DNA of 64,000 bases, from positions 1 to 64,000 of the IMG/VR virus record IMGVR_UViG_2974723488_000001. The stretch is one strand, 5' to 3'. The stretch comes from a virus (lineage: Duplodnaviria; Caudoviricetes). A program made the position numbers and the translations under genes. Below are positions 8,106 through 48,746 of this stretch, one piece after another; within the stretch, counting starts at the first letter, position 1, and the number at the start of each line of letters is the position of its first letter. The notes beneath the pieces were generated by a model, which saw nothing but the letters and a program-made list of their open reading frames with translations, was not told where the DNA came from and did not search any database.

Positions 8106-9098
8106 ATGAAATACCAAGTAGCGTATAACGCTTCGCTGAAAATCGTCCGCGTTCAAGCGGATGGCGACACTGCTGGCTCGGGATTCACCGTGCTGGACAA
8201 GTTCGATCACCCGGATAGCGACTCCCTGGGTCGTGCCGGTGTGGCTCACGCTCTGTACTCCCACGTTCAAGACGTGATGTACCGCAAAGCGGGGATCCAG
8301 GACATGCAGCGTCTGTCCATCGAATGGCCTGCCTACGTGGCTCCGAACTTCATCTCGGCCGGTCCGACTTCCATCAGCACTCCGGCTGGTACCGAAGGTA
8401 CTCTGGAGGTCTACTCGGATCCCCAGGTTCTGAGCAAGCCCAACTACTCCTTCATCTTCAATGGTTCGGAAGAAGTGCTGAAGATCAACAAGGTGACGGG
8501 CAAGTGGGCTGCTGTCGGTCCGGGCAAAGGTGTCATCCGTGTCACCCATGCTGACGGCCAAGTCTACGTCGATGTTCCCGTGAACGTCTCGCAAGCAGGC
8601 GTGATTCCCTCCACGGCTGTCGCTGTCGCTCCCAAGACGGCAACCGTGAACGTGAACCAGACCACGACTCTGACCGCTACCAAGACCCCGGCCAACTCCA
8701 CCGATGTGGTGGAATGGTCCTCGGACAAGGAAAACATCGCCACGGTCGTCGGCGGTGTGGTGACTGGCAAGGCTCCCGGCACTGCCACCATCACCGCTCG
8801 TACCGAGACGGGCAAGACCGATACCGCTGCCATCACGGTGACTCAGCCGGTTCAGGGTGTCACCCTGGCTCCGGTGAATCCCACCGTTGCTGCTGGTTCC
8901 ACGGTTCAACTGACGGCGACTGTCACTCCGGCCAATGCCTCGAACAAGGCTGTCACCTACACTTCGGCCACTCCGGCTGTTGCCACGGTGAATGCCACGG
9001 GTCTGGTCACGGGTGTCGCTGCCGGTACTTCCGTCATCACGGTCAAGACGACCAACGGTGCGAAGACTGCCACGACCACGGTGACGGTAACGGAGTAA
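8106..9098 (+). CDS. capsid decorating protein with Ig-like (Big_2) domains (N4 gp17-like)
   Basis: TPANSTDVVEWSS..IATV and TPANASNKAVTYTS..VATV Big_2 repeats; syntenic after RNAP II. Confidence 0.85.
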   Translation: MKYQVAYNASLKIVRVQADGDTAGSGFTVLDKFDHPDSDSLGRAGVAHALYSHVQDVMYRKAGIQDMQRLSIEWPAYVAPNFISAGPTSISTPAGTEGTLEVYSDPQVLSKPNYSFIFNGSEEVLKINKVTGKWAAVGPGKGVIRVTHADGQVYVDVPVNVSQAGVIPSTAVAVAPKTATVNVNQTTTLTATKTPANSTDVVEWSSDKENIATVVGGVVTGKAPGTATITARTETGKTDTAAITVTQPVQGVTLAPVNPTVAAGSTVQLTATVTPANASNKAVTYTSATPAVATVNATGLVTGVAAGTSVITVKTTNGAKTATTTVTVTE

Positions 9099-36268: not shown

Positions 36269-36302
36269 AAGAGAAAGCCCCCATCACTGGGGGCTTTCTT
36301 TT
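36267..36302. terminator. bidirectional terminator at the convergence of middle and late genes
   Basis: AAAAGAGAAAGCCCCCA-TCAC-TGGGGGCTTTCTTTT. Confidence 0.85.
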
Positions 36303-39300
36303 ATTGAACCAGGTTATGCCAGGGGTTCAGGTTAGGAGCACGAAGCCCTTGACCCGGACCAATGGAGTAACCCAATCGTCCTTCAGCGAACACCGAGAAG
36401 ATGTTGTCTTCGATGGGCAAGCCCACGTTGCCAAACATCTCCGGTTTCGGAGCCACCGTTGCGAACAACGAGTGCAGCGGGTTGTTGCGGATCATGCTCA
36501 CAGCAACCTTAGCCGAACGGATCTTGAAGTTGTAGAACCAGAGCAGGCCCATCGACTCCATGTAGCCACGGAAGCGTCCAGGCAGACGGTCGTAGTTAAT
36601 GAACTCTTCCGTCACACGACCCAGGGCATCTTCCTTCGACTTTTTCTGACGTTGCGTCATATCGTCATAGATGATGGCCTTGGCCATGAAGTCGCTGTAC
36701 TCCACCGCCTTCTGAATACCCTGGAACAGAGCAGTATCCTTGGTGATCAGAGCATAACGACCAGCCGTTTGAAGACCCTTCGGCAGACGATCCACCAGCT
36801 TCTCCATGTACTGCTGCATCTTACCTTCCGAGATGAGGATGTCATCACGGCTGATACCTGCATCAGAGATGCTGCTGAACTCACCACGCTCCAGCAGAGG
36901 CCAGATCGACAGACGCTTGTGGCTATCAGTGATCGACTGGATCTCAGCTTGCAGCTTGCGTTCCTTCACTGCATCGCCTTGGGCAGCACGAAGCTCGGCT
37001 TCAGCTTCCAATTGACGCAGACGAGTCTTCAGATACTGGTTGATTTCCGAAGTCTTCTTCGGGATACCCAACACAATATCCTTCATGGGAACACCACGAC
37101 CAACCATCTGGTAGATGTTAGCCAGGAAGTTCACAGCGGGAACGATGACAGACTTCACCACGATCAAGGTCTTGGCTTCCTTAACCACGTTCTGCACCAC
37201 ATTCTCTGCACCCATCACGTACTTGTAGGCATTGTTGCCGAACACACCAAGCAGCAGCTTCTTAGTTGCGTCTTGAGTGTCCTTGCTCCAACGGCTGTTG
37301 CCAGTCCAAGCATCACCCACCGAAGCGGAACGATAACCAAAGGTGTCATTCAGCATGTCCTTGCGAACCCAGAACTCACCTTCACCGAAGAGACCCTGAG
37401 CACGATCCAGGGTTTCCTGGTTCAGCAGACGAATGGCATCAGCCATCACCGGGTCACGACGTTGCTCACGGAGATCCAGGACGTTCACGTACTGGCCCTT
37501 GTCACCGTCAGCCTTGAACATGGAATACAGCTTTTCCACCAGGGCATCATTGAAGAACTGAGCCTTGGCCTCTTCCACCTGACGACCACGCCACACACCG
37601 ACCATCTTGGCGAAATGATCATCCGCATTCAGAGCAGCCATACGAGCCGGGTCAATGGAACGCTCATAAGCGGTCACCTTACCCTGATCATCGTAGACCG
37701 GCAGCAGAGTCTCGGTGCTTTTCTCCCCTTGGCTCAACAGACGCTGCACCTGAGCAATCGTATTCCGGTCCGTGATACGACCAGCAGTCATGCCATTGGT
37801 GAAGCCGGTGTTGGTATCCACACCACCCGCAGTGCTACGCACGTTCTGTGCAATGCCTTGCGAAAAGGGCGAACGAGCCGACACCGGAGCGAAGTAGTAG
37901 CCCCGGGAACCACGGAAACGATCAGCAGACGATCCCTTGTAGTCACCGATACGGACGTAAGACTTCTCGGCCAGCGTAGCGAAATCGGCATCATCGGCTA
38001 CCACCAGGGACAGACCTTGCTGTGCTTCAGCAGGGATGTAGCCCTTGTAGGCGTTGAAGCGAGCAGCTTTGTTGGCCTTGGTCTTGCGTTGCTCTTCCAT
38101 ACGCTGGCCCACCATGTAAGCCGTGGAGAAATCCATGCCTTCCACTTCCGTCTCTGCCAGTTCCTTCAGGACAGCACGCTTGTCCGAAGGGATGGCTTCC
38201 AAGGCGTACATGGAAATCAGGGCATCCAGATCTTGAACCATGGAATCAGTAGGAGCAGCACGACCATTGCGCTTGCGTTCACCCAGCAGGTGAGCCACAG
38301 CATCCGCATTGCGGAGCAGATTGGAACCAGCCACGCCAGTGATCATGTAGTTCGCCAGTTGCTTGGCCTTGCTTTGGATCAGCTTCCAGTGAGCAGGATC
38401 AGCGGCTTGGACCTTGCCTTCCAGATCATTGACCGCACGGTCAAAGGACTTGTCCTTGGACAGCAGATCACGGACTTCATCCGGAGAGAAGTGATCACGC
38501 AGAGCAGCCACATCAGCCTTACCCAGACCAGTATGCAGAGCGGACCACTCATGGTCTTCCAGACGACGAGTGAACTTCTCAGCAATGGTAGTGGGCAGAT
38601 GCTCACGGAACTGCTGACGGTCTTGAGACACTTGACTCTTGACTGCCTTGATCATGTCATACACACCGGCATTGCTGGCAGTACGACCAACCAAGTCATT
38701 CACGAAGTCATGGAAAGGTTGCCATGCCTTGGATTTGTTCATGGCAGTCATGACACCTTCTGCAACCGCAGCACCGTTCTTCTCGGTAGCCACCGCAGCA
38801 ATCAAGCGAGCAGCCTGGGCCGTACCCTTGGCCAGCTTGGAGGCATCAGGATTGGCAATCACGCCATCGGCCTTGGCGATGGTGGAGTCTGACAGACGCT
38901 CCATCTGCTGAACGATGTAGTCGTTGGCACGGTCGATGAAGTTGCCGGTAGGGGTAGCCACCGAGTCATAGACCGTCTGACGATCCTGAGCCACTTCACG
39001 GATTTTGCGAGCCAGGGCATCCACAGCTTCCGTCACGTTGCCAGCCTTGCGAGCACCAGCCAGAGTCTGGTTGAGAGTTTGCATGGCCTTGGTTCCAGCG
39101 TTGGTCAAGATGTTGTCCAGGGACACATCCTGCTTCTGGTTCGCCTTCGGCACAGGCATCTTGGCCAGCACTTGACGCAGATCATCGTGAACCATGGCAA
39201 GGCCAAGGAACACCGGCAGCAGGCTGCTACGACCTTGAGCATCAGTCTCGGTCAGGTAGTTGCCCATGATCACGTTGTACTTCTCCTGAGCGTAGTAACG

Positions 39301-42300
39301 ATCCGAGGGATCATTCGCTTCAGGGTCAGCCATGAAGTCTTCGACCTTGGCATTCTTGGTGACGTGGCTGTACAACTCCTGAGCGTATGCCAAAGAGTTG
39401 GGATCGATAGCGGCCTGAGTACCCAGAGCAGCCACCACCATTTGGAAGGTGGATTGCTCTTGAGTGGTCATCGGGAAGCCATTGGCCTGCACGTTCACCA
39501 TCAGGCGGGTAGCAGACATCAAAGCCTGATCCACCTTCGATTGAGTCGTGATTTGGTCAACAGGATCCGTGCCGATGTAATCGGTGACCAGCTTGTCGAA
39601 GGTCTGATTCAGTTCAGCAAGGCGAGTATCAGCACCGTAAGCATGGCTCTGGAACAGAGTCGTGTCACGGGCAACTTCCATGATGGAAGGCTGCGAACGC
39701 ATGATGATTGCCGAGTTGAACAGCAGGTTCGAGAACATGTCCTCACCAACCTTGGGCATGACCTTACGACCCCAGATCAGTTGCTTGATACCGGCGATCA
39801 CATCCTTGATCAGTTGAACCAAGGAGGGAGTAGCCTTCATCTTGGAAGACAGTTCACGGTTGGTCAGGCCCCACGCCATGAACTCGTTCAAGGCAGCAGC
39901 CTTGTTCAGCGAAGCGTCGGAGAAGCCATTGTTCAGGTGATCCTGAATGGCCATCTTCGCATCGGTGTAGGCATCTTGGAATTCCGGGGATTCCTTCGAG
40001 ACATCGAATGCCACGAATTGATCCATCAGTTTTTCCAAACGGCCGACTGCCTCCGACACTGCACGACCTTGCAGTCCCAGATCCTGGCCCGTGTAATGGG
40101 CATAGACACTTTCAAACGTAGCGGCATGAACCAGTTCATGGATCAGAGTTTCGGTACGCGGCTGAGTCAGGTAGATGGTCTTGTCGTCGAAGGTAGTCCA
40201 ACCGTCGATGTTGCCCTTCTTGGCTTCGGCCAGATCAGCAGGTTCCATCATTTGCTTGCCGGTCAGTTCAGCGTACAGGTTCACCTGTTCCGGAGTACCG
40301 AACACCACCTTGTATTCCTTAGCGGCCAGGGACTTCTGAATCTCATTCAGAACAGCAGCTTGCTCAGGAGACATACGGCTGATCTTGCCCAGGTTCTTGA
40401 TGGCAGTCACCGACAGAACACGAGCACCAGACTTCGCATGCACTCGACCCACCGCTTCAAAAGCAGGGTTGAGTTTTTCTTTTTCCACCGTTGATTCGGC
40501 AGGAGCTTTCAGCTTGGCCAGTTCTTCATTGAACATCTGGTTCAGCACAGCAACCTTCTCGTCAGTGGTCAGACCCTTGAAGTCCACCGTACCCTTGTTG
40601 GTGTACGAAGCACCAACAGCACCCATCTGGTCCACGGTCACCTGAACGCGATTCATCACATTGTGACGAGCCTTCACTTCAAGAGCCGTATTAGCCAGTC
40701 GGTTACCCAGAGCCAGAGCAGCAGCTTCCAGCACTTCCGGCTTCACCTTCTCATTCCAATACTTCGGTTCGAGCAGGCTACGACGCAGAGCAGCTTGCAG
40801 ATCATCGCTCATGTTGCTGAAGTCAGCGTTCTTCATGAACTTCTGGAATGAGTCGGATACAGCCTGAGCAGGGTTACCTTGCCAGGACTTGTAGACGGCT
40901 TCGTTCGCCTTCACCGAATCTTCGGTAATGGTAGACAGTTTCATGTTCATGCCGTCGAAGATCTTCAACGTGCCGGTCGGACCATTCTTCATGGCTGCGA
41001 GTTCTTGCATCATCATGCCGTCACCCATGCCAATGGTCAGGAACGGAATACCAGCAACACCAGCATCGCTCGGGCCATAGAAGGTAGCAGGCACACGAAC
41101 GCTCTCGTCCAGAGAACGAGCAATGTGTCGATTGCCGCTGAACTCAGCAGTCTCGGAACCAGCCACGAAGAAGGTCTGGGCACCCGTCTCGATCATCGGA
41201 GCCAGGGGAGCCAAGGACTTCATGACGGCATCCATTTCCTTCTGGCTCAGGAAGTCGCTTTCCTTCCACGAAGGATCAGCAGCCTTCTTGGCTTCCATGG
41301 CTTGATCCAGGCCACGCTTGTAGGCGTCTTGCAAGAACAGGGACTGTACCTGAGTAGCCTTCTGGATCTCACGGGTAGCTTCCATCAGCGGTTCGCCGAT
41401 GGTGCTGTTGATGGCATCACGCAGGGGAGTCACGAACAGGTGCAGCATGTTGGCTTGCAGAGCCTTCATCTGGGCAGCCTTGAGCGTGTACGTCTTCGGA
41501 TCCATCTTGCGAGCATGGCCGGAACCAGTGGATTCCAACACGAGATTGCCCTTACGCAGAGTCACGGCATCCGAAGTCAGAGCTTCCATCGCATCCAGGA
41601 ACTTACCCAGCATCTCTTCTGCATGGGCAGGAGATTCCGACTGAGGCCCGAACATGGCTTCAGCAGCAGAGATATTGGGATCGGCAGCACGGGATTGCAG
41701 CACTTGGCTCATGCGCTTGTAGATCTCACCGACCATGGTGGAAACTACCTTGCCAGCAATACCAGCAGCACCGGAACCATAGACGGTAATGGTCAGCGGG
41801 TTCTTGGCAATGCCACGCTTCAGTTCCAGTTCACCGGCATCATTGACCGACAGATCGGGCAGGAACAGATCCATCAAGGTCTGAAGCTGCGTCATCTGGT
41901 TCGACAAAGCAGGATCACCGCGCAGAGATTCACGCAGCACCTTGACGTTAGCCGCCAGTGCATCCGTGGTCGTCTGGTACAAGTCACGGCCGTCCACCTT
42001 GGAGTAGTGGTCGTTCAACGTCTTGCCGGGTTCACCCAGGAACATGCCACCCTTGGCCATGTTGGTCACCCACTGCGAAGTGAAGCGGCCACCGGTCATG
42101 AGAGCCATGGCATTGATGGGACCGTTGGTCTTGCCGTCAGCTTCCACATACAGGGGAGTATTGAATTCGCTGCGATTCTCTGCATGCAGATAGCGAGCGT
42201 ATTCCTGGAGAGCCATCAGGCCAACGAACGAAGGCTTACCACCCAGAGCCTTGCGGATGACATCCACAGCATTCGGGGGAAGTTCGGATTCATTCTGGAA

Positions 42301-45300
42301 GGCACGGATCATCTCGACAGCTTCAGCCATCGGACCCTTCAGCATACCCATCACTTCATTGACTGCATCAGCACGAGGTTTCGTCTCGACCTTCACACCC
42401 AGAGCCTGGGCAAGACCCAAAGCAAAGGCAGAGAAGTCAGCCGTATTCTCGTTACTCAAATCCAGAGTGGACTGAGTGGGCAGCACTGCTTCACGCATCA
42501 GCTTGCTGGACTGGGGGTTGTACTTACCCAGCATCTGCATACGACCGACACGGGTCATGTTGTAGCCGTAGAAGATCGGTTGATCATCCACTTGGCTCGT
42601 CAGTTCCGACAGTTGATCGAATGCAGCAGCAATGGAACGGTTCTGACCATCCATGGAGCGAGCATCATTGATGTTCAGGACTTCTTCATCCATCTTTCCA
42701 TTGGCGAAGAGTTCCAGAATACCTTCACGACCCAGTGCTTCATACAGACGAACCGTAGGATTGTGAACGTAGAACGGAGTGTTCTGCTCATTGCGGATAG
42801 CACGAACCTGATCCGGAGTGTTCTCAACACCAGGATTACGCAGTTGAGTGCGTGCAACGGGAGGACGATCCTCACCAATGAACAGCTTCTCTTCCGGATT
42901 GACCAACACTGCCTCTTCGATGGCAGTGGGGTACTGGCGAACAGCATCATCATCCTCCAGAGGACGGATGCGATACAGGTTCACTTCACGGACCTTGCCG
43001 GGTTCACCGTCAGCCAGGATGTTGCCCATGTCGTCGATGGCGATGTTCTGGACTTCCACATCCCCACGCTTGACGAAAGCAGCCAGAAGCTCAGAAGCCA
43101 CGGCAGCAGGAATACCCTTGGTGTAGCCAATGGGAGCGTCGGGATTGCGTTGCAGTCCCCAGTAGGACTCGACCTTTTGAGCCAAGGCATTCACAGCCTC
43201 GACAGCAGTCATGCCATTCTGGAAATCGGTCAGCAGGCTATCAGGCACCAGACTTTCATCGATACCCAGGATGGAAGCCACGTCTTTCATGTCCTTAACG
43301 GAACCACGAGAGACAGCAGTCAGACGCCATTGCAGACCAGCCAGAACTGCGGTTTGCAGCAGACTTTCGTTGTACTGCAAAGTGTCACCAACCTGTTCCG
43401 TGATATTCAGGCTCTTGCCCATCACCCAACGGTTCGGTTCACGATCCAGCTTGGACATGATCTTGTCGTTAGCCACGAACTTGGCGAGCGAATCACGCAT
43501 GTTCTGGGCAACCAGACGACCGACTTCCATCACATCCTTGTAGGACGAAATCACATCACCATCCAGCTTCGAGTTGGCTTCGGCACCCAGGTGAGCAGCC
43601 ATACGAGCATTGCTGGTCAACACCTTGGCAATGTCTTCCAGCGGAGCTTCGGAACCAATGACGCGAGTACGGGCTTCGGTCGGCAGAGTGAAGGAATTCG
43701 TGAACTGGTTCTTCTCGATCAGGTTCGGGTAAACGGCAGCAGTCCCCGTCTTTTCGACGGTAGGTTCTTGGACAGGAGCAGCAGGCGTTTCCGGAGTTAC
43801 GTCTTCTTGCTTTGCCTCTACCACAGGTTCGGCTTTCGGGGGTACAGTGGCGGCAGGTTCCTCGGTAACAACCGGGGGTTCTTCCTTCACAACTTCTTCA
43901 GCGGGTGCAGCCTTCTTTGCTTCACGAGCGACATCAAGATCGCGTTGACGGAAAGACTTCACCACCTCGGATGCAGGCGCGTCCAGACGCTGATCCAACG
44001 GGACCAGTTCAACATGATCGACCTTCAACTCCGGGTAAGCCGTAGCGAGGGCATTGGCAATTTCGCCGACCGTTTTTGCCTCAAGTCCCACTTGCTGGGC
44101 AAATTTGACCGACTTGGTGTCATAGGGGTTTACCCCGAGTCCCTTGCGGCTCTCGACCCAATCCCGTCCAGCAGTGAGGGATTGATACTTGACCGAACGA
44201 TTCGGATCACCATTCCCCGAAATCAGATGCTCATTGAGCGCTCCGACCTTGTTCTGCATGTGCTGGGCGAACTTGAGAAAGTCGTCAAGGCGAGCGGCGG
44301 CGAGATCGAGGTTACCCGCGTTGTACGCCGAACGAATCCCCTTCGCATGTTGAAGCGCCGAATACTGTCCTTCTGCTCGCGTTTCATCCGTCTTGATCTG
44401 TTTACCCACAATGTCTTGCGGACGAAGACCAAGGCGTTCCGCCTCTAAGTCGAACTGACGAGCACCCTGCAACAGAGCCGATGCACTCTTCAGTGCAGCC
44501 AACTGCGAGTTGTTCAGGGCAATCTTCCCTTCCGATGCATGCTTCAGGATCTGGCCAATCACTTCGGGATTGGCTTTTTCCGGGGCAGCTTCAGCCTGAG
44601 CCACAGCCAACTTAATGTTCTGTTCACCAGCCGGAGTAGCGATATTGGCTTCCGTCACCGGCTTCACTTGAGCTTCGGACAGCATTCCCTGTACCGCACG
44701 CAGAGCACGCAGTACCTTCGGGGTATTCCCCAGGTTCGCAGCCAGATTGCTGAATTGAGCCAGGGCTTCCTGAGCCGGGTGATCAGCAGGCAGCTTTTCG
44801 ATAGCCGAGGGCATACGCTCGAAGAAGCCTTCCATGGTTCCAACCATGTCATGCAGCGTCAGCGATGCAGCCATATGGGCATCCGAACCTTCATCCGACT
44901 TGTTGATCAAGTCGGAGAGCTTCTCGAATGCTTCAGCACGAGTGGTAGCCGTGGACACAGCATCCTTCACCTCTTGAGGCATGGACGGCTGATCCAGTTC
45001 AGCAGGGTTGAACTTGGCAGCATTGACCAGATCGTCAATGTACTGATTGGCTTCGGTCTTCTCTTCCGGAGTAGCCTTTACCGATTCCACTGCTTCCTTC
45101 ATGGTGGCAGCAGCTTGATCAGCAGTCTGTACAGCTTCAGCCGCAGCAGCTTGAACGGTACGGTCAGCAACCGGGCTGGCCTGTTCATTCTGCTTCATGA
45201 CCGCTTCACCACGAGCCATGATGGGAGACAGTGCCGTGTTGGCAGCAGCCTTCACAGTATTCAACGTTCCCTTCATAACCGCAGCAGCGGGGGCTACAGC

Positions 45301-46614
45301 CGCTCCAGCAGCTTTAACTGAAGCACCCGGTACTTGGACAGCACCAGCAGTTCCGAAGCCGTACAGGGCGCCTACGCCAGCCTGTTCACCCACACCTTCC
45401 AGAATGTCCGTGTTGGTATCGACATAGCGACGTTCAGCCAAATTCTGAGCCAGTTGGCCGGAACCAGACTGAATACCTTCTTCCACCGTCTCACGCAGCA
45501 GGTTGCCAACGAATTGGCCCATGTTGCCGACAGTGAAGGGATTCGATTCCAGACGAGCAACCAGGGGACCGGTAGCGGCACCCACAGGAGCTTGGATGGC
45601 AGCAGCCATCTTGCCGGTGGCATTAGCCACACGAACACGAGCATCTTCAGGAGACACACCCTGCTTGATCAGATCCTGGTACAGCGGGGAAGTCTTGGCC
45701 AGTTCAGCGAAGTCCTTCTTCATGACTTCTGCCGTCACCTGTTGGTAAGCACCACCGGCTTCCATGGTTCCCACTGCGGCAGCAGCCGGGGCAGCGCCAG
45801 CAGCAGCATTCAGGATACGGGCAGCAGACATACTGCCAGCAGCCGTATCGATTGCAGCCGCAGCACCCACACCTGCCTTGACGCTATTCGGGATGACAGC
45901 CTGACCGACCTTAGCGAAACCCTTGATCAGCGGACCAGCAGCCAGCAGGGAACCAACCCCTTGGCTAACGCCGGAACCAAGAGTGGCAGGATCCTGCACA
46001 GCTTGGGCCACGGAATCGAAAGCATCACGACCGATACGAGCAAGACCAGCCACGAGCTTGGAATCGCCAGCAGCGATGTCCTTCTCGTATTGGGCAGCGT
46101 TGTCACGGGTAGCTTCAGCAGTGCGGGCTTGGTTCACTCGACGACGAGCCTGGAGATCACCCGATTGGGTTCCCTGCGCCCATTCATTCAGATCACCGAT
46201 CTGGCTTGCCAGATTGGCACCGGCTTCTTCATTGAAGAGGCCCGTACCCAAGGCACCGATACCACCCACGGCATTAGCCAATCCCAGGCCAACATCGGTG
46301 ACCACATCACCGGCACCCTGGGAGAAGGTGCGTTGACCGGATTGATCACGCACCAGTTGACCAGCAGCATCAGCTCGACGAACCAGGGCATCGAAGCCAT
46401 AGTTCTGGGCATAGGTGTTGGCATCCTGAGTGCGGAGAGCTTGCTCTTGCGGACTGGCAGAATCCATCCCGGTTCCCGCCTGTTGTCCAGCCAGTCCCTG
46501 GTATTCCAGGCCACCGACTTCGGCTTTCTTCTGCTCGGTAGCGGCTGCGACAGCATCCCGTTTGGCAGCGCCAATGGAGTTCGCGTAACCGGCCAAGCGG
46601 TCAAAAGTAGACAT
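36301..46614 (-). CDS. virion-encapsidated RNA polymerase (N4 gp50-like)
   Basis: 3437 aa; NMTRVGRMQM, motif A EADGKTNG, motif B RGIAKNPLTITVYG, motif C KIFDGM; no Cys found on reading. Confidence 0.97.
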   Translation of the reverse strand: MSTFDRLAGYANSIGAAKRDAVAAATEQKKAEVGGLEYQGLAGQQAGTGMDSASPQEQALRTQDANTYAQNYGFDALVRRADAAGQLVRDQSGQRTFSQGAGDVVTDVGLGLANAVGGIGALGTGLFNEEAGANLASQIGDLNEWAQGTQSGDLQARRRVNQARTAEATRDNAAQYEKDIAAGDSKLVAGLARIGRDAFDSVAQAVQDPATLGSGVSQGVGSLLAAGPLIKGFAKVGQAVIPNSVKAGVGAAAAIDTAAGSMSAARILNAAAGAAPAAAAVGTMEAGGAYQQVTAEVMKKDFAELAKTSPLYQDLIKQGVSPEDARVRVANATGKMAAAIQAPVGAATGPLVARLESNPFTVGNMGQFVGNLLRETVEEGIQSGSGQLAQNLAERRYVDTNTDILEGVGEQAGVGALYGFGTAGAVQVPGASVKAAGAAVAPAAAVMKGTLNTVKAAANTALSPIMARGEAVMKQNEQASPVADRTVQAAAAEAVQTADQAAATMKEAVESVKATPEEKTEANQYIDDLVNAAKFNPAELDQPSMPQEVKDAVSTATTRAEAFEKLSDLINKSDEGSDAHMAASLTLHDMVGTMEGFFERMPSAIEKLPADHPAQEALAQFSNLAANLGNTPKVLRALRAVQGMLSEAQVKPVTEANIATPAGEQNIKLAVAQAEAAPEKANPEVIGQILKHASEGKIALNNSQLAALKSASALLQGARQFDLEAERLGLRPQDIVGKQIKTDETRAEGQYSALQHAKGIRSAYNAGNLDLAAARLDDFLKFAQHMQNKVGALNEHLISGNGDPNRSVKYQSLTAGRDWVESRKGLGVNPYDTKSVKFAQQVGLEAKTVGEIANALATAYPELKVDHVELVPLDQRLDAPASEVVKSFRQRDLDVAREAKKAAPAEEVVKEEPPVVTEEPAATVPPKAEPVVEAKQEDVTPETPAAPVQEPTVEKTGTAAVYPNLIEKNQFTNSFTLPTEARTRVIGSEAPLEDIAKVLTSNARMAAHLGAEANSKLDGDVISSYKDVMEVGRLVAQNMRDSLAKFVANDKIMSKLDREPNRWVMGKSLNITEQVGDTLQYNESLLQTAVLAGLQWRLTAVSRGSVKDMKDVASILGIDESLVPDSLLTDFQNGMTAVEAVNALAQKVESYWGLQRNPDAPIGYTKGIPAAVASELLAAFVKRGDVEVQNIAIDDMGNILADGEPGKVREVNLYRIRPLEDDDAVRQYPTAIEEAVLVNPEEKLFIGEDRPPVARTQLRNPGVENTPDQVRAIRNEQNTPFYVHNPTVRLYEALGREGILELFANGKMDEEVLNINDARSMDGQNRSIAAAFDQLSELTSQVDDQPIFYGYNMTRVGRMQMLGKYNPQSSKLMREAVLPTQSTLDLSNENTADFSAFALGLAQALGVKVETKPRADAVNEVMGMLKGPMAEAVEMIRAFQNESELPPNAVDVIRKALGGKPSFVGLMALQEYARYLHAENRSEFNTPLYVEADGKTNGPINAMALMTGGRFTSQWVTNMAKGGMFLGEPGKTLNDHYSKVDGRDLYQTTTDALAANVKVLRESLRGDPALSNQMTQLQTLMDLFLPDLSVNDAGELELKRGIAKNPLTITVYGSGAAGIAGKVVSTMVGEIYKRMSQVLQSRAADPNISAAEAMFGPQSESPAHAEEMLGKFLDAMEALTSDAVTLRKGNLVLESTGSGHARKMDPKTYTLKAAQMKALQANMLHLFVTPLRDAINSTIGEPLMEATREIQKATQVQSLFLQDAYKRGLDQAMEAKKAADPSWKESDFLSQKEMDAVMKSLAPLAPMIETGAQTFFVAGSETAEFSGNRHIARSLDESVRVPATFYGPSDAGVAGIPFLTIGMGDGMMMQELAAMKNGPTGTLKIFDGMNMKLSTITEDSVKANEAVYKSWQGNPAQAVSDSFQKFMKNADFSNMSDDLQAALRRSLLEPKYWNEKVKPEVLEAAALALGNRLANTALEVKARHNVMNRVQVTVDQMGAVGASYTNKGTVDFKGLTTDEKVAVLNQMFNEELAKLKAPAESTVEKEKLNPAFEAVGRVHAKSGARVLSVTAIKNLGKISRMSPEQAAVLNEIQKSLAAKEYKVVFGTPEQVNLYAELTGKQMMEPADLAEAKKGNIDGWTTFDDKTIYLTQPRTETLIHELVHAATFESVYAHYTGQDLGLQGRAVSEAVGRLEKLMDQFVAFDVSKESPEFQDAYTDAKMAIQDHLNNGFSDASLNKAAALNEFMAWGLTNRELSSKMKATPSLVQLIKDVIAGIKQLIWGRKVMPKVGEDMFSNLLFNSAIIMRSQPSIMEVARDTTLFQSHAYGADTRLAELNQTFDKLVTDYIGTDPVDQITTQSKVDQALMSATRLMVNVQANGFPMTTQEQSTFQMVVAALGTQAAIDPNSLAYAQELYSHVTKNAKVEDFMADPEANDPSDRYYAQEKYNVIMGNYLTETDAQGRSSLLPVFLGLAMVHDDLRQVLAKMPVPKANQKQDVSLDNILTNAGTKAMQTLNQTLAGARKAGNVTEAVDALARKIREVAQDRQTVYDSVATPTGNFIDRANDYIVQQMERLSDSTIAKADGVIANPDASKLAKGTAQAARLIAAVATEKNGAAVAEGVMTAMNKSKAWQPFHDFVNDLVGRTASNAGVYDMIKAVKSQVSQDRQQFREHLPTTIAEKFTRRLEDHEWSALHTGLGKADVAALRDHFSPDEVRDLLSKDKSFDRAVNDLEGKVQAADPAHWKLIQSKAKQLANYMITGVAGSNLLRNADAVAHLLGERKRNGRAAPTDSMVQDLDALISMYALEAIPSDKRAVLKELAETEVEGMDFSTAYMVGQRMEEQRKTKANKAARFNAYKGYIPAEAQQGLSLVVADDADFATLAEKSYVRIGDYKGSSADRFRGSRGYYFAPVSARSPFSQGIAQNVRSTAGGVDTNTGFTNGMTAGRITDRNTIAQVQRLLSQGEKSTETLLPVYDDQGKVTAYERSIDPARMAALNADDHFAKMVGVWRGRQVEEAKAQFFNDALVEKLYSMFKADGDKGQYVNVLDLREQRRDPVMADAIRLLNQETLDRAQGLFGEGEFWVRKDMLNDTFGYRSASVGDAWTGNSRWSKDTQDATKKLLLGVFGNNAYKYVMGAENVVQNVVKEAKTLIVVKSVIVPAVNFLANIYQMVGRGVPMKDIVLGIPKKTSEINQYLKTRLRQLEAEAELRAAQGDAVKERKLQAEIQSITDSHKRLSIWPLLERGEFSSISDAGISRDDILISEGKMQQYMEKLVDRLPKGLQTAGRYALITKDTALFQGIQKAVEYSDFMAKAIIYDDMTQRQKKSKEDALGRVTEEFINYDRLPGRFRGYMESMGLLWFYNFKIRSAKVAVSMIRNNPLHSLFATVAPKPEMFGNVGLPIEDNIFSVFAEGRLGYSIGPGQGLRAPNLNPWHNLVQ
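44014..44448 (+). CDS. candidate antisense overlapping gene nested in vRNAP (144 aa)
   Basis: local codon shift in vRNAP (Leu 12 CTT/CTC, 1 TTA, 1 TTG, 1 CTG by hand count); the rare TTA supplies the antisense stop. Confidence 0.45.
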   Translation: MIDLQLRVSRSEGIGNFADRFCLKSHLLGKFDRLGVIGVYPESLAALDPIPSSSEGLILDRTIRITIPRNQMLIERSDLVLHVLGELEKVVKASGGEIEVTRVVRRTNPLRMLKRRILSFCSRFIRLDLFTHNVLRTKTKAFRL

Positions 46615-46647
46615 GGTGTCTATCCTATAAGAGATATGTTTGTAGTA

Positions 46648-46656
46648 AGTCTACCA
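46648..46656 (-). promoter_or_regulatory. putative extended -10 late promoter for vRNAP
   Basis: TG-G-TAGACT on the - strand, between the upstream terminator and the vRNAP start. Confidence 0.45.
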
Positions 46657-46662
46657 CTATCC

Positions 46663-46695
46663 AAAAGAAAACGCCCCACTCAAGAGAGTGAGGCG
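46663..46695 (-). terminator. Rho-independent terminator
   Basis: CGCCTCACTC-TCTT-GAGTGGGGCG-TTTTCTTTT on the - strand. Confidence 0.8.
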
Positions 46696-46718
46696 CTGAG
46701 TGGCGAGGTCAGTGTACC

Positions 46719-48746
46719 TTAGCCAAGCACACCGGAGCGTCGATCAAGCCAATTTTGCAGACGTTCCGTGGAACGTTTGTCGGCCTTCTGAGACGTAGTG
46801 CCGGTAGTCTTCGGAGCCAGTTCCTGTTTCCGACGTGCTGCCCACTGGTTGTCCACTTCTTGGAGTTGACGAGTCAGTGCTTCGACACGGGCCTGAGCTT
46901 GCTCTTCCGCTTGAACCAAGGCAGGAAGGTTACGAGCCAGGGAAGGATTGGTACGCATGGCCTGCTGGAGCTTCACACGTTCCGCATTGGCAGCTTGAGC
47001 AGCCTTGGAGGCATCTTCAATCTGCTTGGCGAAGTTGCTACGCATCTCAGCCACTGCCACACGTTCCGGAGCATTTCCACGAGCAAACTCATTGTCCAGA
47101 ATCTGGTTGAGCCGGTTCGTGTTGATACCCAGGTTCGTCTTGGAGTCGTTATCCGTAGGACCACCACCGACCCAGGAAGTGAACTGATCCCAGCCACGAC
47201 CAATACCAGAGGTACGGCCGGAGCCAGCAGACGCCTTCAAAGCTTCGATCACCGTGGCATCGTTGATCGGCACACCTTGTGCAGCCATACGATCCTTGGC
47301 TTGTTCAATGTGCTGCATCAGCCACTGCTTGTCAGCACCTTCAAACGCACCACCCTTGCCGGTCAGTTCCGGCAACAGTTCAGAAGCAGGGCGAAGATCA
47401 CGGATCGAACGGTCGAAACCATTGACCAGAGTACCCGAAGCTTCTTGAGCACGACGGTTCAATGCATCCAGTTGTGCGATACGAGCTTGTCCAACAATCT
47501 CTTGCACCGGATTGAGATCGATACCAGTGTCTTGAGCAGAAACTTCCCTGCCTGCAATCTCTTGACGGGCCTGACTCCAAGGGATGTCCTTGTAGTGACC
47601 AACCTTCGAGTTGTTCAGAGCAGCCCAAGTCTTGGTGAGATCACCACCCTTGCGGTCGTTGTACAGAGCTTCAGCGATCTTCTCTTGGTTCTCCGGCGAC
47701 ATGGGCATGGACTTCCAGTCCGGACCCAGTGCCTTGGGGCCATACTCTTCCAGGGTTGCCTTGTTGATCTGGTAACGACCAACAGGAGAGTGACCCAGAT
47801 TGGGATCCTTGATCATGCCAGCCTGATGTTCCAGCACATCCGAGATGCTCATCGAAGTGATGGGACGGCTGGTAGGCGTGAACTTGAAGGTAGCGTCATA
47901 GGACGAGCCTTGGCGAGTACCGGCAGTACCAGGAGCAGAAGGAACAAAACCACCTTGTGCTTGCTGAGGCTGATCGGAAGGACCAAAGCCCAGACCAATC
48001 TGAGCACCTACCAGACGACGAGCAGCCGGGGACAGGGAGTTGATACCCGAGGCCACGTTCCGCTGGTACTGTTCTTCGCTGCCCGAGGACATGCGGTTCG
48101 ACAGGAGGTAATCGGATGCTTCCTTACGGGCAGCATCTTCTTCCATCCGGTTGCTCAGGTTGTATGAAGCCGAAGCATTGGAGGTCATTGCTCCTTGGTT
48201 CGACAGGGTACGACCTTCAGCAGCTTGGGTATCAGCCATCAGCTTCTGGATCTGATCGGTACGCAGACCCTTCAGGGCAGGATCTTGCAGAGCTTGTTGC
48301 ACCACACGAGGGTCACCCGAACGCTGGGCAAAAGCCAGAGCACGGATGGCAGGATCGGCAGCTTCCAGACGCTGGTCAGCATCAATCTGACGACCGAAGT
48401 TGTACTTGTTCTGAGCAGTGGACTGTACTTGAGCAGCCTGACGCACCAGATCGTTGGCACGGGAACCAAGGCCAGCCAAGGTCTCTGCCGACAGACGAGA
48501 GGGATCGATGCCACCCAGGATGGAACCATCCCGCATGGCAGCTTGGTAGGCTTCCGGGTCGTTGATCTGCAACGCACGCTGCATCACTTGGTTCCCCAAG
48601 TTGGCCTGATCTGCTTGCTGGAAATTCCCCAGCGAAGCAGCCAGCCGATCCAGACCACCCGTCACCCCTTGGTTGAATGCACGAATGCCTTCAAGCGCAC
48701 CCGAACCGGATACGCCATCGACATTTCGCCAAGTGAGTTGGGCCAT
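46719..48746 (-). CDS. ejection protein with lysozyme-like domain (N4 gp51-like)
   Basis: MAQLTWRNVD start; SPVGRYQINKATL..MSPENQEKIA..WAAL; Cys-free. Confidence 0.8.
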   Translation of the reverse strand: MAQLTWRNVDGVSGSGALEGIRAFNQGVTGGLDRLAASLGNFQQADQANLGNQVMQRALQINDPEAYQAAMRDGSILGGIDPSRLSAETLAGLGSRANDLVRQAAQVQSTAQNKYNFGRQIDADQRLEAADPAIRALAFAQRSGDPRVVQQALQDPALKGLRTDQIQKLMADTQAAEGRTLSNQGAMTSNASASYNLSNRMEEDAARKEASDYLLSNRMSSGSEEQYQRNVASGINSLSPAARRLVGAQIGLGFGPSDQPQQAQGGFVPSAPGTAGTRQGSSYDATFKFTPTSRPITSMSISDVLEHQAGMIKDPNLGHSPVGRYQINKATLEEYGPKALGPDWKSMPMSPENQEKIAEALYNDRKGGDLTKTWAALNNSKVGHYKDIPWSQARQEIAGREVSAQDTGIDLNPVQEIVGQARIAQLDALNRRAQEASGTLVNGFDRSIRDLRPASELLPELTGKGGAFEGADKQWLMQHIEQAKDRMAAQGVPINDATVIEALKASAGSGRTSGIGRGWDQFTSWVGGGPTDNDSKTNLGINTNRLNQILDNEFARGNAPERVAVAEMRSNFAKQIEDASKAAQAANAERVKLQQAMRTNPSLARNLPALVQAEEQAQARVEALTRQLQEVDNQWAARRKQELAPKTTGTTSQKADKRSTERLQNWLDRRSGVLG

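Follow-up and report, generated by a model that had tools for sequence, protein, structure and literature searches.

The window examined here is a stretch of 64,000 nucleotides (IMG/VR record IMGVR_UViG_2974723488_000001, positions 1 to 64,000) from an N4-like Achromobacter phage (Schitoviridae, Rothmandenesvirinae, Pourcelvirus). Over the 3.5 kb compared, its nucleotide sequence is 97.6% identical to that of phage vB_AxyP_19-32_Axy11 (Axy11) and 97.0% identical to that of Axy22, including their annotated virion RNA polymerase (vRNAP). The vRNAP gene of the window is of the N4 gp50 type; its protein matches the Pfam families PF21894, PF21769, PF21867 and PF21624, as well as PDB chains of N4 vRNAP. 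We analyzed an open reading frame (ORF) situated on the opposite strand within this gene, which the initial annotation had proposed as a hidden antisense gene on account of an abrupt local change in codon usage. The features of the locus are given in Table 1.

Table 1. Features of the vRNAP locus; positions are those of the window.
Feature	Position	Strand	Remarks
Host gene, virion RNA polymerase (vRNAP, N4 gp50 type)	36301..46614	-	3437 amino acids, ~10.3 kb
Codon-usage anomaly zone in vRNAP	44005..44484	-	Sense amino acids ~711-870; high amino acid conservation; C-terminal end of the N-terminal domain
Candidate antisense overlapping gene	44014..44448	+	ATG 44014, 144 codons, TAA 44446-44448
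Conserved leader before the ATG	43948..44013	+	Sense codons 868-889; synonymous constraint; motif CAGACG(T/C)GA(A/T)TCCAA
Weak Shine-Dalgarno-like GGGA	44000..44003	+	10 nt before the ATG; relatives mostly have GGAG, GAGG or AGGAG there
Upstream continuation of the stop-free frame	40879..44013	+	Shadow frame of a GC-rich genome, outside the conserved ORF

The antisense frame in the Achromobacter phage

The ORF stands in exact codon register with vRNAP, running from sense codon 867 down to sense codon 723, and the possible stops of such a codon-aligned antisense frame are the sense codons TTA, CTA and TCA. The start codon, the GGGA in front of it, the stop codon and the translation quoted in the initial annotation were all correct, and the rare TTA to which the TAA stop had been ascribed is the sole TTA codon of the vRNAP gene. 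No stop bounds the ORF on its upstream side in this genome: the plus-strand frame is open from 40879 to 44448, i.e. over 1189 codons. Calculated from the codon usage of this genome, the probability that the stretch of 144 codons is open is ~0.82; therefore the ORF alone does not rise above chance here, and it is the codon anomaly that represents the real signal. Over the whole vRNAP gene the codon-aligned antisense frame (36304..46722, plus strand) consists of ORFs of 862, 471, 1189, 260 and 462 codons, with five stops in 3437 codons. It is almost open because the phage avoids TTA, CTA and TCA.

In most relatives the antisense frame ends at the site corresponding to 44425..44427 (plus strand), where TAA or TAG lies opposite Leu730 encoded by TTA or CTA. 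This site reads AAG in the window (sense CTT), and the ORF runs seven codons past it, to the TAA at 44446. At sense position 723, the window has Leu encoded by TTA (antisense TAA) while Axy11 and Axy22 have Ser encoded by TCA (antisense TGA), so that the amino acid differs and the stop is kept. This Leu/Ser exchange is the only vRNAP amino acid difference at that position between the window and the Axy11 and Axy22 loci (L023 and L024; L numbers designate the loci compared).

Codon-usage break in the vRNAP gene

The leucine codons counted by hand in the initial annotation were exact for sense codons 723-867 (CTT 5, CTC 7, TTA 1, TTG 1, CTG 1). The remaining vRNAP gene contains 203 CTG, 41 TTG, 20 CTC and 15 CTT codons and neither TTA nor CTA, and the share of CTT and CTC is 12/15 in the segment versus 35/279 in the rest (Fisher P=2.4e-8). 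Most of the other codons named there as newly appearing are also enriched: GGA/GGG among glycines (8/13 versus 27/237, P=5e-5), GCG among alanines (6/18 versus 28/448, P=1e-3) and TTT among phenylalanines (2/3 versus 8/102, P=0.02), while the enrichment of AAA among lysines (3/11 versus 18/192, P=0.09) is not significant. The change is the sharpest break in codon usage within the gene, and a sliding codon-usage score falls lower, and for longer, at the anomaly zone than anywhere else in vRNAP. With windows of 137 codons the segment reaches z=-4.1, and lower scores occur in 28 of 3301 windows. Its GC content (0.55 in both segment and gene) and GC content at third codon positions (GC3; 0.59 and 0.60, respectively) are unchanged. 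Two more, shorter dips are present in vRNAP, at 46375..46614 (amino acids 1-80) and 45235..45384 (amino acids 411-460).

The segment is also unusually conserved as a protein: its amino acid identity to phage N4 is 79%, compared with 56% for the whole vRNAP, which agrees with the strong conservation that the initial annotation had stated. According to the accessible part of a structural paper on N4 vRNAP, the N-terminal domain is not resolved in cryo-EM and is modeled by AlphaFold 3 as two helical subdomains (PMC13434306).

Start, stop and open frame in related phages

We compared 45 distinct full-length vRNAP genes with a GC content of 0.41-0.62, taken from IMG/VR and metagenome loci and from named phage records; the proteins were aligned and the codons threaded onto the alignment. 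Seven truncated genes (L008, L011, L012, L017, L033, L034 and L040) and seven exact duplicates (L004, L005, L035, L037, L039, L044 and L049) were left out. A further alignment-based scan of IMG/VR gave one new locus, L035, a duplicate of JWAlpha, and the metagenome scan returned mostly the enterobacterial clades already sampled. The vRNAP region of L034 (Klebsiella phage vB_Kpl_K57alpha1.2, OY979416) is annotated as many short partial or pseudogene antisense coding sequences and looks mis-annotated or error-rich.

The start column holds His in 37 of the 45 genes, encoded by CAT in 36 and by CAC in one, which gives an antisense ATG in 36 and GTG in one. Among 18 representative lineages CAT is found at this column in all 18, with 10.2 expected, and the product of the gene-wide CAT fractions over 15 lineages is ~1e-4. 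The ORF of the 37 start-bearing relatives is 104-158 codons long and its stop lies at sense amino acids 723-762 in 35 of them, the other two being L053 (711) and L032 (714). Whether start and stop are conserved and the frame uninterrupted in relatives had been named as a check in the initial annotation; this is the case in 37 of the 45 vRNAP genes, AT-rich ones included. The GC-rich phages possess only 3-8 TTA, CTA or TCA codons per gene, yet one is kept at sense amino acid 723 or 730. The AT-rich lineages have 52-147 antisense-frame stops per gene, yet the frame is open for 131-140 codons at this segment, between stops 4-8 codons upstream of the ATG and stops at sense amino acid 728, 730 or 737.

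The probability that a lineage would have the frame open, calculated from its own amino acids and gene-wide codon usage, is 0.0085 for N4, 0.0003 for L003, 0.043 for L007, 0.026 for L010, 0.0025 for L019 and 0.074 for L028. The product over these six lineages, whose retained synonymous signal outside the segment is only 0.02-0.25, is 5e-13. In windows of 137 codons, nine AT-rich lineages together have a single antisense stop in the segment, which is open in eight of them. In comparison, the 3301 control windows contain on average 30.9 stops (sd 9.4), and outside the segment the minimum is 10 stops, with no more than three lineages open. With windows of 100 codons this segment is the only one open in at least six of the nine AT-rich lineages, and a second conserved antisense ORF was not found elsewhere in the vRNAP gene in these lineages.

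A 4-mer resembling the Shine-Dalgarno (SD) sequence is present at -18..-5 in 26 of the 37 ORF-bearing sequences, while the background is 0.08 of in-frame positions. The codon anomaly itself goes together with the start codon. Counting Fifi067, whose ATG lies close by, with the lineages that have the start column, it is present in 37 of 38, GC-rich as well as AT-rich, with z from -2.3 to -4.3. Seven of the eight sequences lacking the start (L021, L022, L050, Philippe, OLIVR2, QDWS595 and R7L) show no anomaly (z from -1.0 to +1.4). In the eighth, Fifi067 (z -3.1), an ATG stands in frame three codons upstream, and GAGG precedes it.

Synonymous constraint and preservation of antisense residues

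The initial annotation had connected the codon swaps with the antisense residues they produce, and the alignment bears this out, with the rare codons GCG, GGG and CTT fixed at given columns where they yield antisense Arg, Pro and Lys. The vRNAP residue is shared by 16 or more of the 18 representative lineages in 49 columns, and there the choice of codon preserves the antisense residue in 600 of 837 cases, with 363 expected. Gly800 is encoded by GGG in 15 of 16 lineages (1.0 expected), giving antisense Pro; Ala753, Ala763 and Ala792 are encoded by GCG in 13-15 lineages (~1 expected), giving antisense Arg; and Val808 is encoded by GTC in 16 of 18, giving antisense Asp. Ser752 and Ser762 are encoded by TCG or TCT, both of which give antisense Arg, and TCC, AGC and AGT are absent. 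This alternation of codons with Arg kept therefore points to selection at the level of protein and not of nucleotides. The excess of antisense-preserving codons is 0.283 in the segment and 0.107 elsewhere in the gene (sd 0.032, maximum 0.185).

A drop in synonymous variability, another check that had been named, was found, and it coincides with the ORF and its leader, which hold the top windows of the gene. Codon identity at identical residues, measured in 120 pairs, peaks at amino acids 746-815 and 836-900 with z of 11-13 (sd for the gene 3.7), and the highest synonymous-identity windows of the gene fall at amino acids 851-900 (z 11.9-13.4). The constraint sets in ~20 codons upstream of the ATG, where the modal codon is used 118 times out of 159 (71.9 expected), and returns to background past the stop (117 of 217, with 100.9 expected). 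In the AT-rich relatives the leader motif contains an in-frame TGA eight codons before the ATG. A secondary synonymous-identity peak (z ~7.4-7.9) is located at ~41695..41874 (sense amino acids 1581-1640), within the helical domain PF21894, and there is no conserved antisense open frame at that place.

The same is seen on a shorter evolutionary scale. Synonymous differences in the segment are below expectation in all nine close pairs, with P<0.05 in seven. The window differs from Axy11 at three synonymous sites where 10.4 are expected (P=0.007), and its comparison with Axy22 is alike, while Axy11 and Axy22 show no synonymous differences in the segment (P=0.005). Among the other close pairs, L007-L016 have 6 differences versus ~20 expected (P=2e-4), L013-L014 have 10 versus ~24 (P=0.001), L001-L025 have 5 versus ~12 (P=0.018), L010-L038 have 18 versus ~27 (P=0.047), and L019-L051 have none (P=0.009). 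The pairs without significance are L010-L020 (15 differences, P=0.09) and L002-L027 (0 of 29).

In an OLGenie-type count the segment has the lowest pNN/pNS of the gene (0.67-0.71; mean 0.81, sd 0.064), only ~2 sd off the mean. Its pSN/pSS (0.63-0.69; mean 0.86, sd 0.088) is among the lowest, also only ~2 sd off, and amino acids 291-457 have similar values (0.68-0.69). The lowest sense-synonymous divergence in the deep comparison is found in windows at amino acids 211-467 (pSN 0.60-0.62). Antisense identity strongly exceeds what sense identity predicts in some pairs, such as the window and N4 (0.65 versus 0.42 predicted, 6.3 sd) and L001 and N4 (5.5 sd).

Predicted product and its possible expression

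The predicted product of the window is a basic protein with 18 Arg and 7 Lys, a net charge of +10 and a pI of 10.6. In the core group of relatives the products are 131-144 residues long, with a net charge of +10 to +22 and a pI of 10.6-12.0, and are rich in Arg, Leu, Ile, Val and Ser. Their amino acid composition is more protein-like than that of almost all other antisense windows of the gene (z 1.2-4.2). A transmembrane segment is not predicted in the product (maximal hydropathy over 19 residues ~1.0).

A word-index search of a protein database of 5.8 billion sequences found only three calls of the ORF, all unnamed. Escherichia phage 24-32N (PV933157) is annotated with a hypothetical protein of 138 amino acids, Gp58 (XYH46614.1), at exactly this place; it is the same ORF, antisense at the homologous position of vRNAP, entered in the database without comment. 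In N4 the ORF corresponds to EF056009 42380-42793. The N4 reference record has vRNAP alone annotated here, and no separate antisense coding sequence was recognisable under the match among the best 60 tblastn rows obtained with the N4 version as query. We found no description of a gene antisense to vRNAP in the literature searched, subscription-only papers and supplements apart, and the word "antisense" is absent from the structural paper on N4 vRNAP (PMC13434306).

As for its possible expression, N4 (L018) has a hairpin with a stem of seven pairs and a loop of three nucleotides on the ORF strand ~100 nt upstream of the antisense ATG (8852..8836, minus strand of that locus). Its shape may resemble that of the N4 early hairpin promoters. 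The hairpin is not conserved in the relatives. In the N4-like Pseudomonas phages LUZ7 and LIT1, the accessible part of one study describes middle transcripts that run antisense across late structural genes and were proposed to silence them (PMC9163698). Transcripts of this kind would be a plausible route for the expression of the ORF. The public RNA sequencing runs retrieved consist of contigs that carry no strand information, and those compared with the N4 stretch gave pieces from conserved parts of relatives, with neither strand nor start nor level.

Overprinted gene or alternative explanations

The conserved start and stop, the open frame, the drop in synonymous variability and the lack of recent recombination support the dual coding by an unannotated gene that the initial annotation had suggested. 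We consider it likely, on this comparative evidence, that the plus-strand ORF is a genuine protein-coding gene overprinted antisense on vRNAP, with a basic product of ~16 kDa. It would be overprinted codon on codon over the C-terminal part of the vRNAP N-terminal domain, and it would be conserved across a large part of Schitoviridae: in Enquatrovirinae including N4, in Rothmandenesvirinae and in Erskinevirinae, as well as in Pokken-, Riverrider- and Dendooren-type phages, Burkholderia HN01-type phages and Pseudomonas Holyagarpour-type phages. Dual constraint would then account for the local break in codon usage as well as for the exceptional conservation of this part of vRNAP. The protein would be translated from rightward transcripts of the early/middle strand that continue through the late region, antisense to its genes, at a time when late transcription of vRNAP does not yet prevail.

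If the gene is real, a nucleic-acid-binding or regulatory accessory protein is a possible product, and we offer this as a tentative guess. The broader picture is one that we hold to be somewhat more probable than its contrary: many Schitoviridae, N4 among them, would carry in vRNAP an undescribed functional antisense gene, read from early/middle-strand transcripts crossing the late region, whose small Arg-rich overprinted protein would act in infection (e.g. on nucleic acids or in the switch from middle to late expression) and would be the reason for the conservation of the N-terminal domain. Antisense overlapping genes are a known kind; this instance appears to be undescribed, and its place is a prominent one.

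Several observations weigh against a protein-coding gene. The support comes entirely from the comparison of sequences, and the open frame in this genome alone is expected by chance. The antisense ORF shows no adaptation to the codons that the phage itself prefers (z ~0). AlphaFold2 gave no confident fold with an alignment of 22 sequences (mean pLDDT 39, pTM 0.22), its low-confidence model containing two helices at residues 76-94 and 109-136. The window product matches no Pfam family, its window, N4 and L010 versions match nothing in PHROGs, and no free-standing homologues are evident, a profile search of 1.84 billion representatives having given nine matches. There is no sigma-70-type promoter upstream of the ORF in the window, N4 or L007, and in L010 the sigma-70-like matches are at background level, none of them upstream of the ORF on its strand. 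The window is among the 11 of 37 sequences without an SD-like 4-mer, as it has, like other Achromobacter genera, only GGGA or GGAA. Sense-synonymous divergence among deep lineages is barely lower in the segment than elsewhere (pSN 0.656 versus 0.682, sd 0.026). Antisense identity beyond the sense prediction is uneven: the excess is positive in 12 of 13 pairs, is above 2 sd in six, and is negative between the window and Pokken. Finally, the ORF is shortened to 104-117 codons in HN01, Pokken and RiverRider, and both these and the ORFs of Ea9-2 and RG-2014 (130-131 codons) have lost residues conserved in the core group.

Some of these observations would suit selection on a nucleic-acid element, for example an RNA of either strand that folds into a structure or a DNA site needed in replication, packaging or regulation; the open frame, including its ATG, would then be a by-product. 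Synonymous sites are indeed constrained, and this reaches ~60 nt beyond the ATG on its upstream side in the form of a conserved nucleotide motif. No fold could be predicted with confidence for the protein, its conservation beyond the sense constraint is uneven, and the antisense transcripts over late genes of LUZ7 and LIT1 have a proposed silencing role (PMC9163698, accessible part). However, conserved RNA structure found no support: RNAalifold with 12 lineages yielded a weak consensus of -37.6 kcal/mol over 528 columns with an unfavourable covariation term (+0.74), no more than 8 of the 69 pairs show compensatory changes, and Rfam gave no family at E<=1. The alternation at Ser752 and Ser762 is a G/T transversion that leaves the antisense Arg intact. 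Between deep lineages roughly half of the synonymous sites of the segment have changed, yet no member of the core group has a stop inside the ORF, and the constraint does not continue past the stop codon. We therefore regard such an element as unlikely. Codon choice could also serve the sense gene, if a cluster of unusual codons tuned the speed of translation or co-translational folding of vRNAP and the ORF were accidental. The anomaly does consist partly of codons rare in all these phages (GGG, GCG), and the segment closes a predicted globular subdomain that a flexible linker follows directly (PMC13434306, accessible part). Nevertheless, it is the identity of codons that is conserved and not their rarity, as common codons are fixed too (TTC in 16 of 18 lineages with 13.3 expected, AAG in 15 of 18 with 12.5 expected), and AT-rich phages avoid not only the abundant TTA but also the rare CTA, which a rule of rare codons would favour. 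Tuning leaves the conserved CAT (antisense ATG), the SD-like motif, the stop kept in GC-rich phages and the constraint on the leader all unexplained, which makes it a very unlikely cause.

An ordinary shadow ORF, open through avoidance of TTA, CTA and TCA on a plus strand free of selection, would fit the window taken by itself, with its 1189 open codons, its five stops in the whole gene and the high probability of an open frame. Single AT-rich genomes also have other similar open runs, for example N4 at amino acids 2095-2250 (155 codons). These other runs are not common to the lineages, though, and this one is; the frame is open in AT-rich relatives despite predicted probabilities of 0.0003-0.07, which contradicts a plain shadow ORF, and the codon anomaly, the synonymous constraint and the conservation of start and stop would have no explanation. 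This possibility is even less probable than codon tuning. The initial annotation had also listed a recombined patch from a phage of different codon bias, not yet ameliorated, as an alternative. Its appeal lies in the sharp edges of the anomaly and in the protein identity of the sense segment, which is 82-83% to Klebsiella and E. coli phages and 80-81% to other Achromobacter genera. Against it, the same anomaly occupies the same place in lineages with a GC content from 0.41 to 0.62, the patch does not deviate from the gene in GC or GC3, and among members of the species it is better conserved than the sequence on either side (99.2% versus 97.6%). A recent recombinant patch is ruled out because the anomaly is common to these lineages and because the best nucleotide match outside the phage's own species is only 79%; recombination in general is extremely improbable here.

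If the overprinted gene is true, a conserved second gene would lie inside that of N4 gp50, which ranks among the best-studied phage proteins. All annotations of the family, members of which are used in phage therapy and engineering, would have to include it. It would confound work with recoded or codon-optimised vRNAP and with mutants and truncations in the N-terminal domain. The island of conservation which structural work on that domain, in its accessible part, leaves unexplained (PMC13434306) would have its explanation. Among phages with double-stranded DNA it would also be a rare example of an antisense overlap that is old and found throughout a family, one directly testable in N4 and E. 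coli K-12. More generally, hidden genes can come to light through local breaks in codon usage common to relatives that differ widely in GC content.

Comparison with known overlapping genes

Antisense overlapping genes have been reported in bacteria, namely olg1 and olg2 of Pseudomonas aeruginosa (PMC8850804) and novel antisense genes of E. coli O157:H7 (PMC9927249). As far as the accessible parts of these papers describe them, they resemble the candidate in being ORFs of several hundred nucleotides fully embedded antisense, with signals of conservation and purifying selection and no known family; the evidence for them is from RNA-seq and ribosome profiling, and their evolutionary origin is described as recent (PMC8850804, PMC9927249). 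Unlike them, the ORF antisense to vRNAP is known here from sequence comparison alone, and it is conserved across several subfamilies with widely differing GC content.

Ordinary shadow ORFs of GC-rich genomes lie in the same codon-aligned antisense frame, which only the rare sense codons TTA, CTA and TCA can close. AT-rich relatives do not conserve them, however, and they leave synonymous sites unconstrained, while the vRNAP antisense ORF is conserved and does constrain these sites. Overprinted or embedded genes are well known in phages, for example Rz1 within Rz and genes B, K and E of phiX174, which are same-strand overlaps in another frame. There, as in the present case, one stretch of phage DNA gives two proteins, the second of which is an orphan that plausibly arose de novo on an older gene. 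In contrast to these, the second frame in vRNAP runs along the opposite strand, codon against codon, lies inside a late gene of 10 kb, and would belong to another temporal class of transcription. Overlaps in viruses have been surveyed (PMC7017920, accessible part).

Linker next to the antisense frame

The N-terminal domain of N4 vRNAP is followed by a low-complexity linker at residues 907-1006, according to the accessible part of the 2026 structural paper (PMC13434306). In the window, the region at ~43600..43915 (sense amino acids ~900-1000), just upstream of the antisense ORF, is a low-complexity, indel-rich linker that is barely alignable among relatives, and it is the counterpart of the N4 linker as described in that part of the paper (PMC13434306). 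Some relatives, such as the G7C-like L010 and Pokken (L030), have insertions of several hundred bases in it. A dip in codon usage at amino acids 901-960 falls within this linker region.

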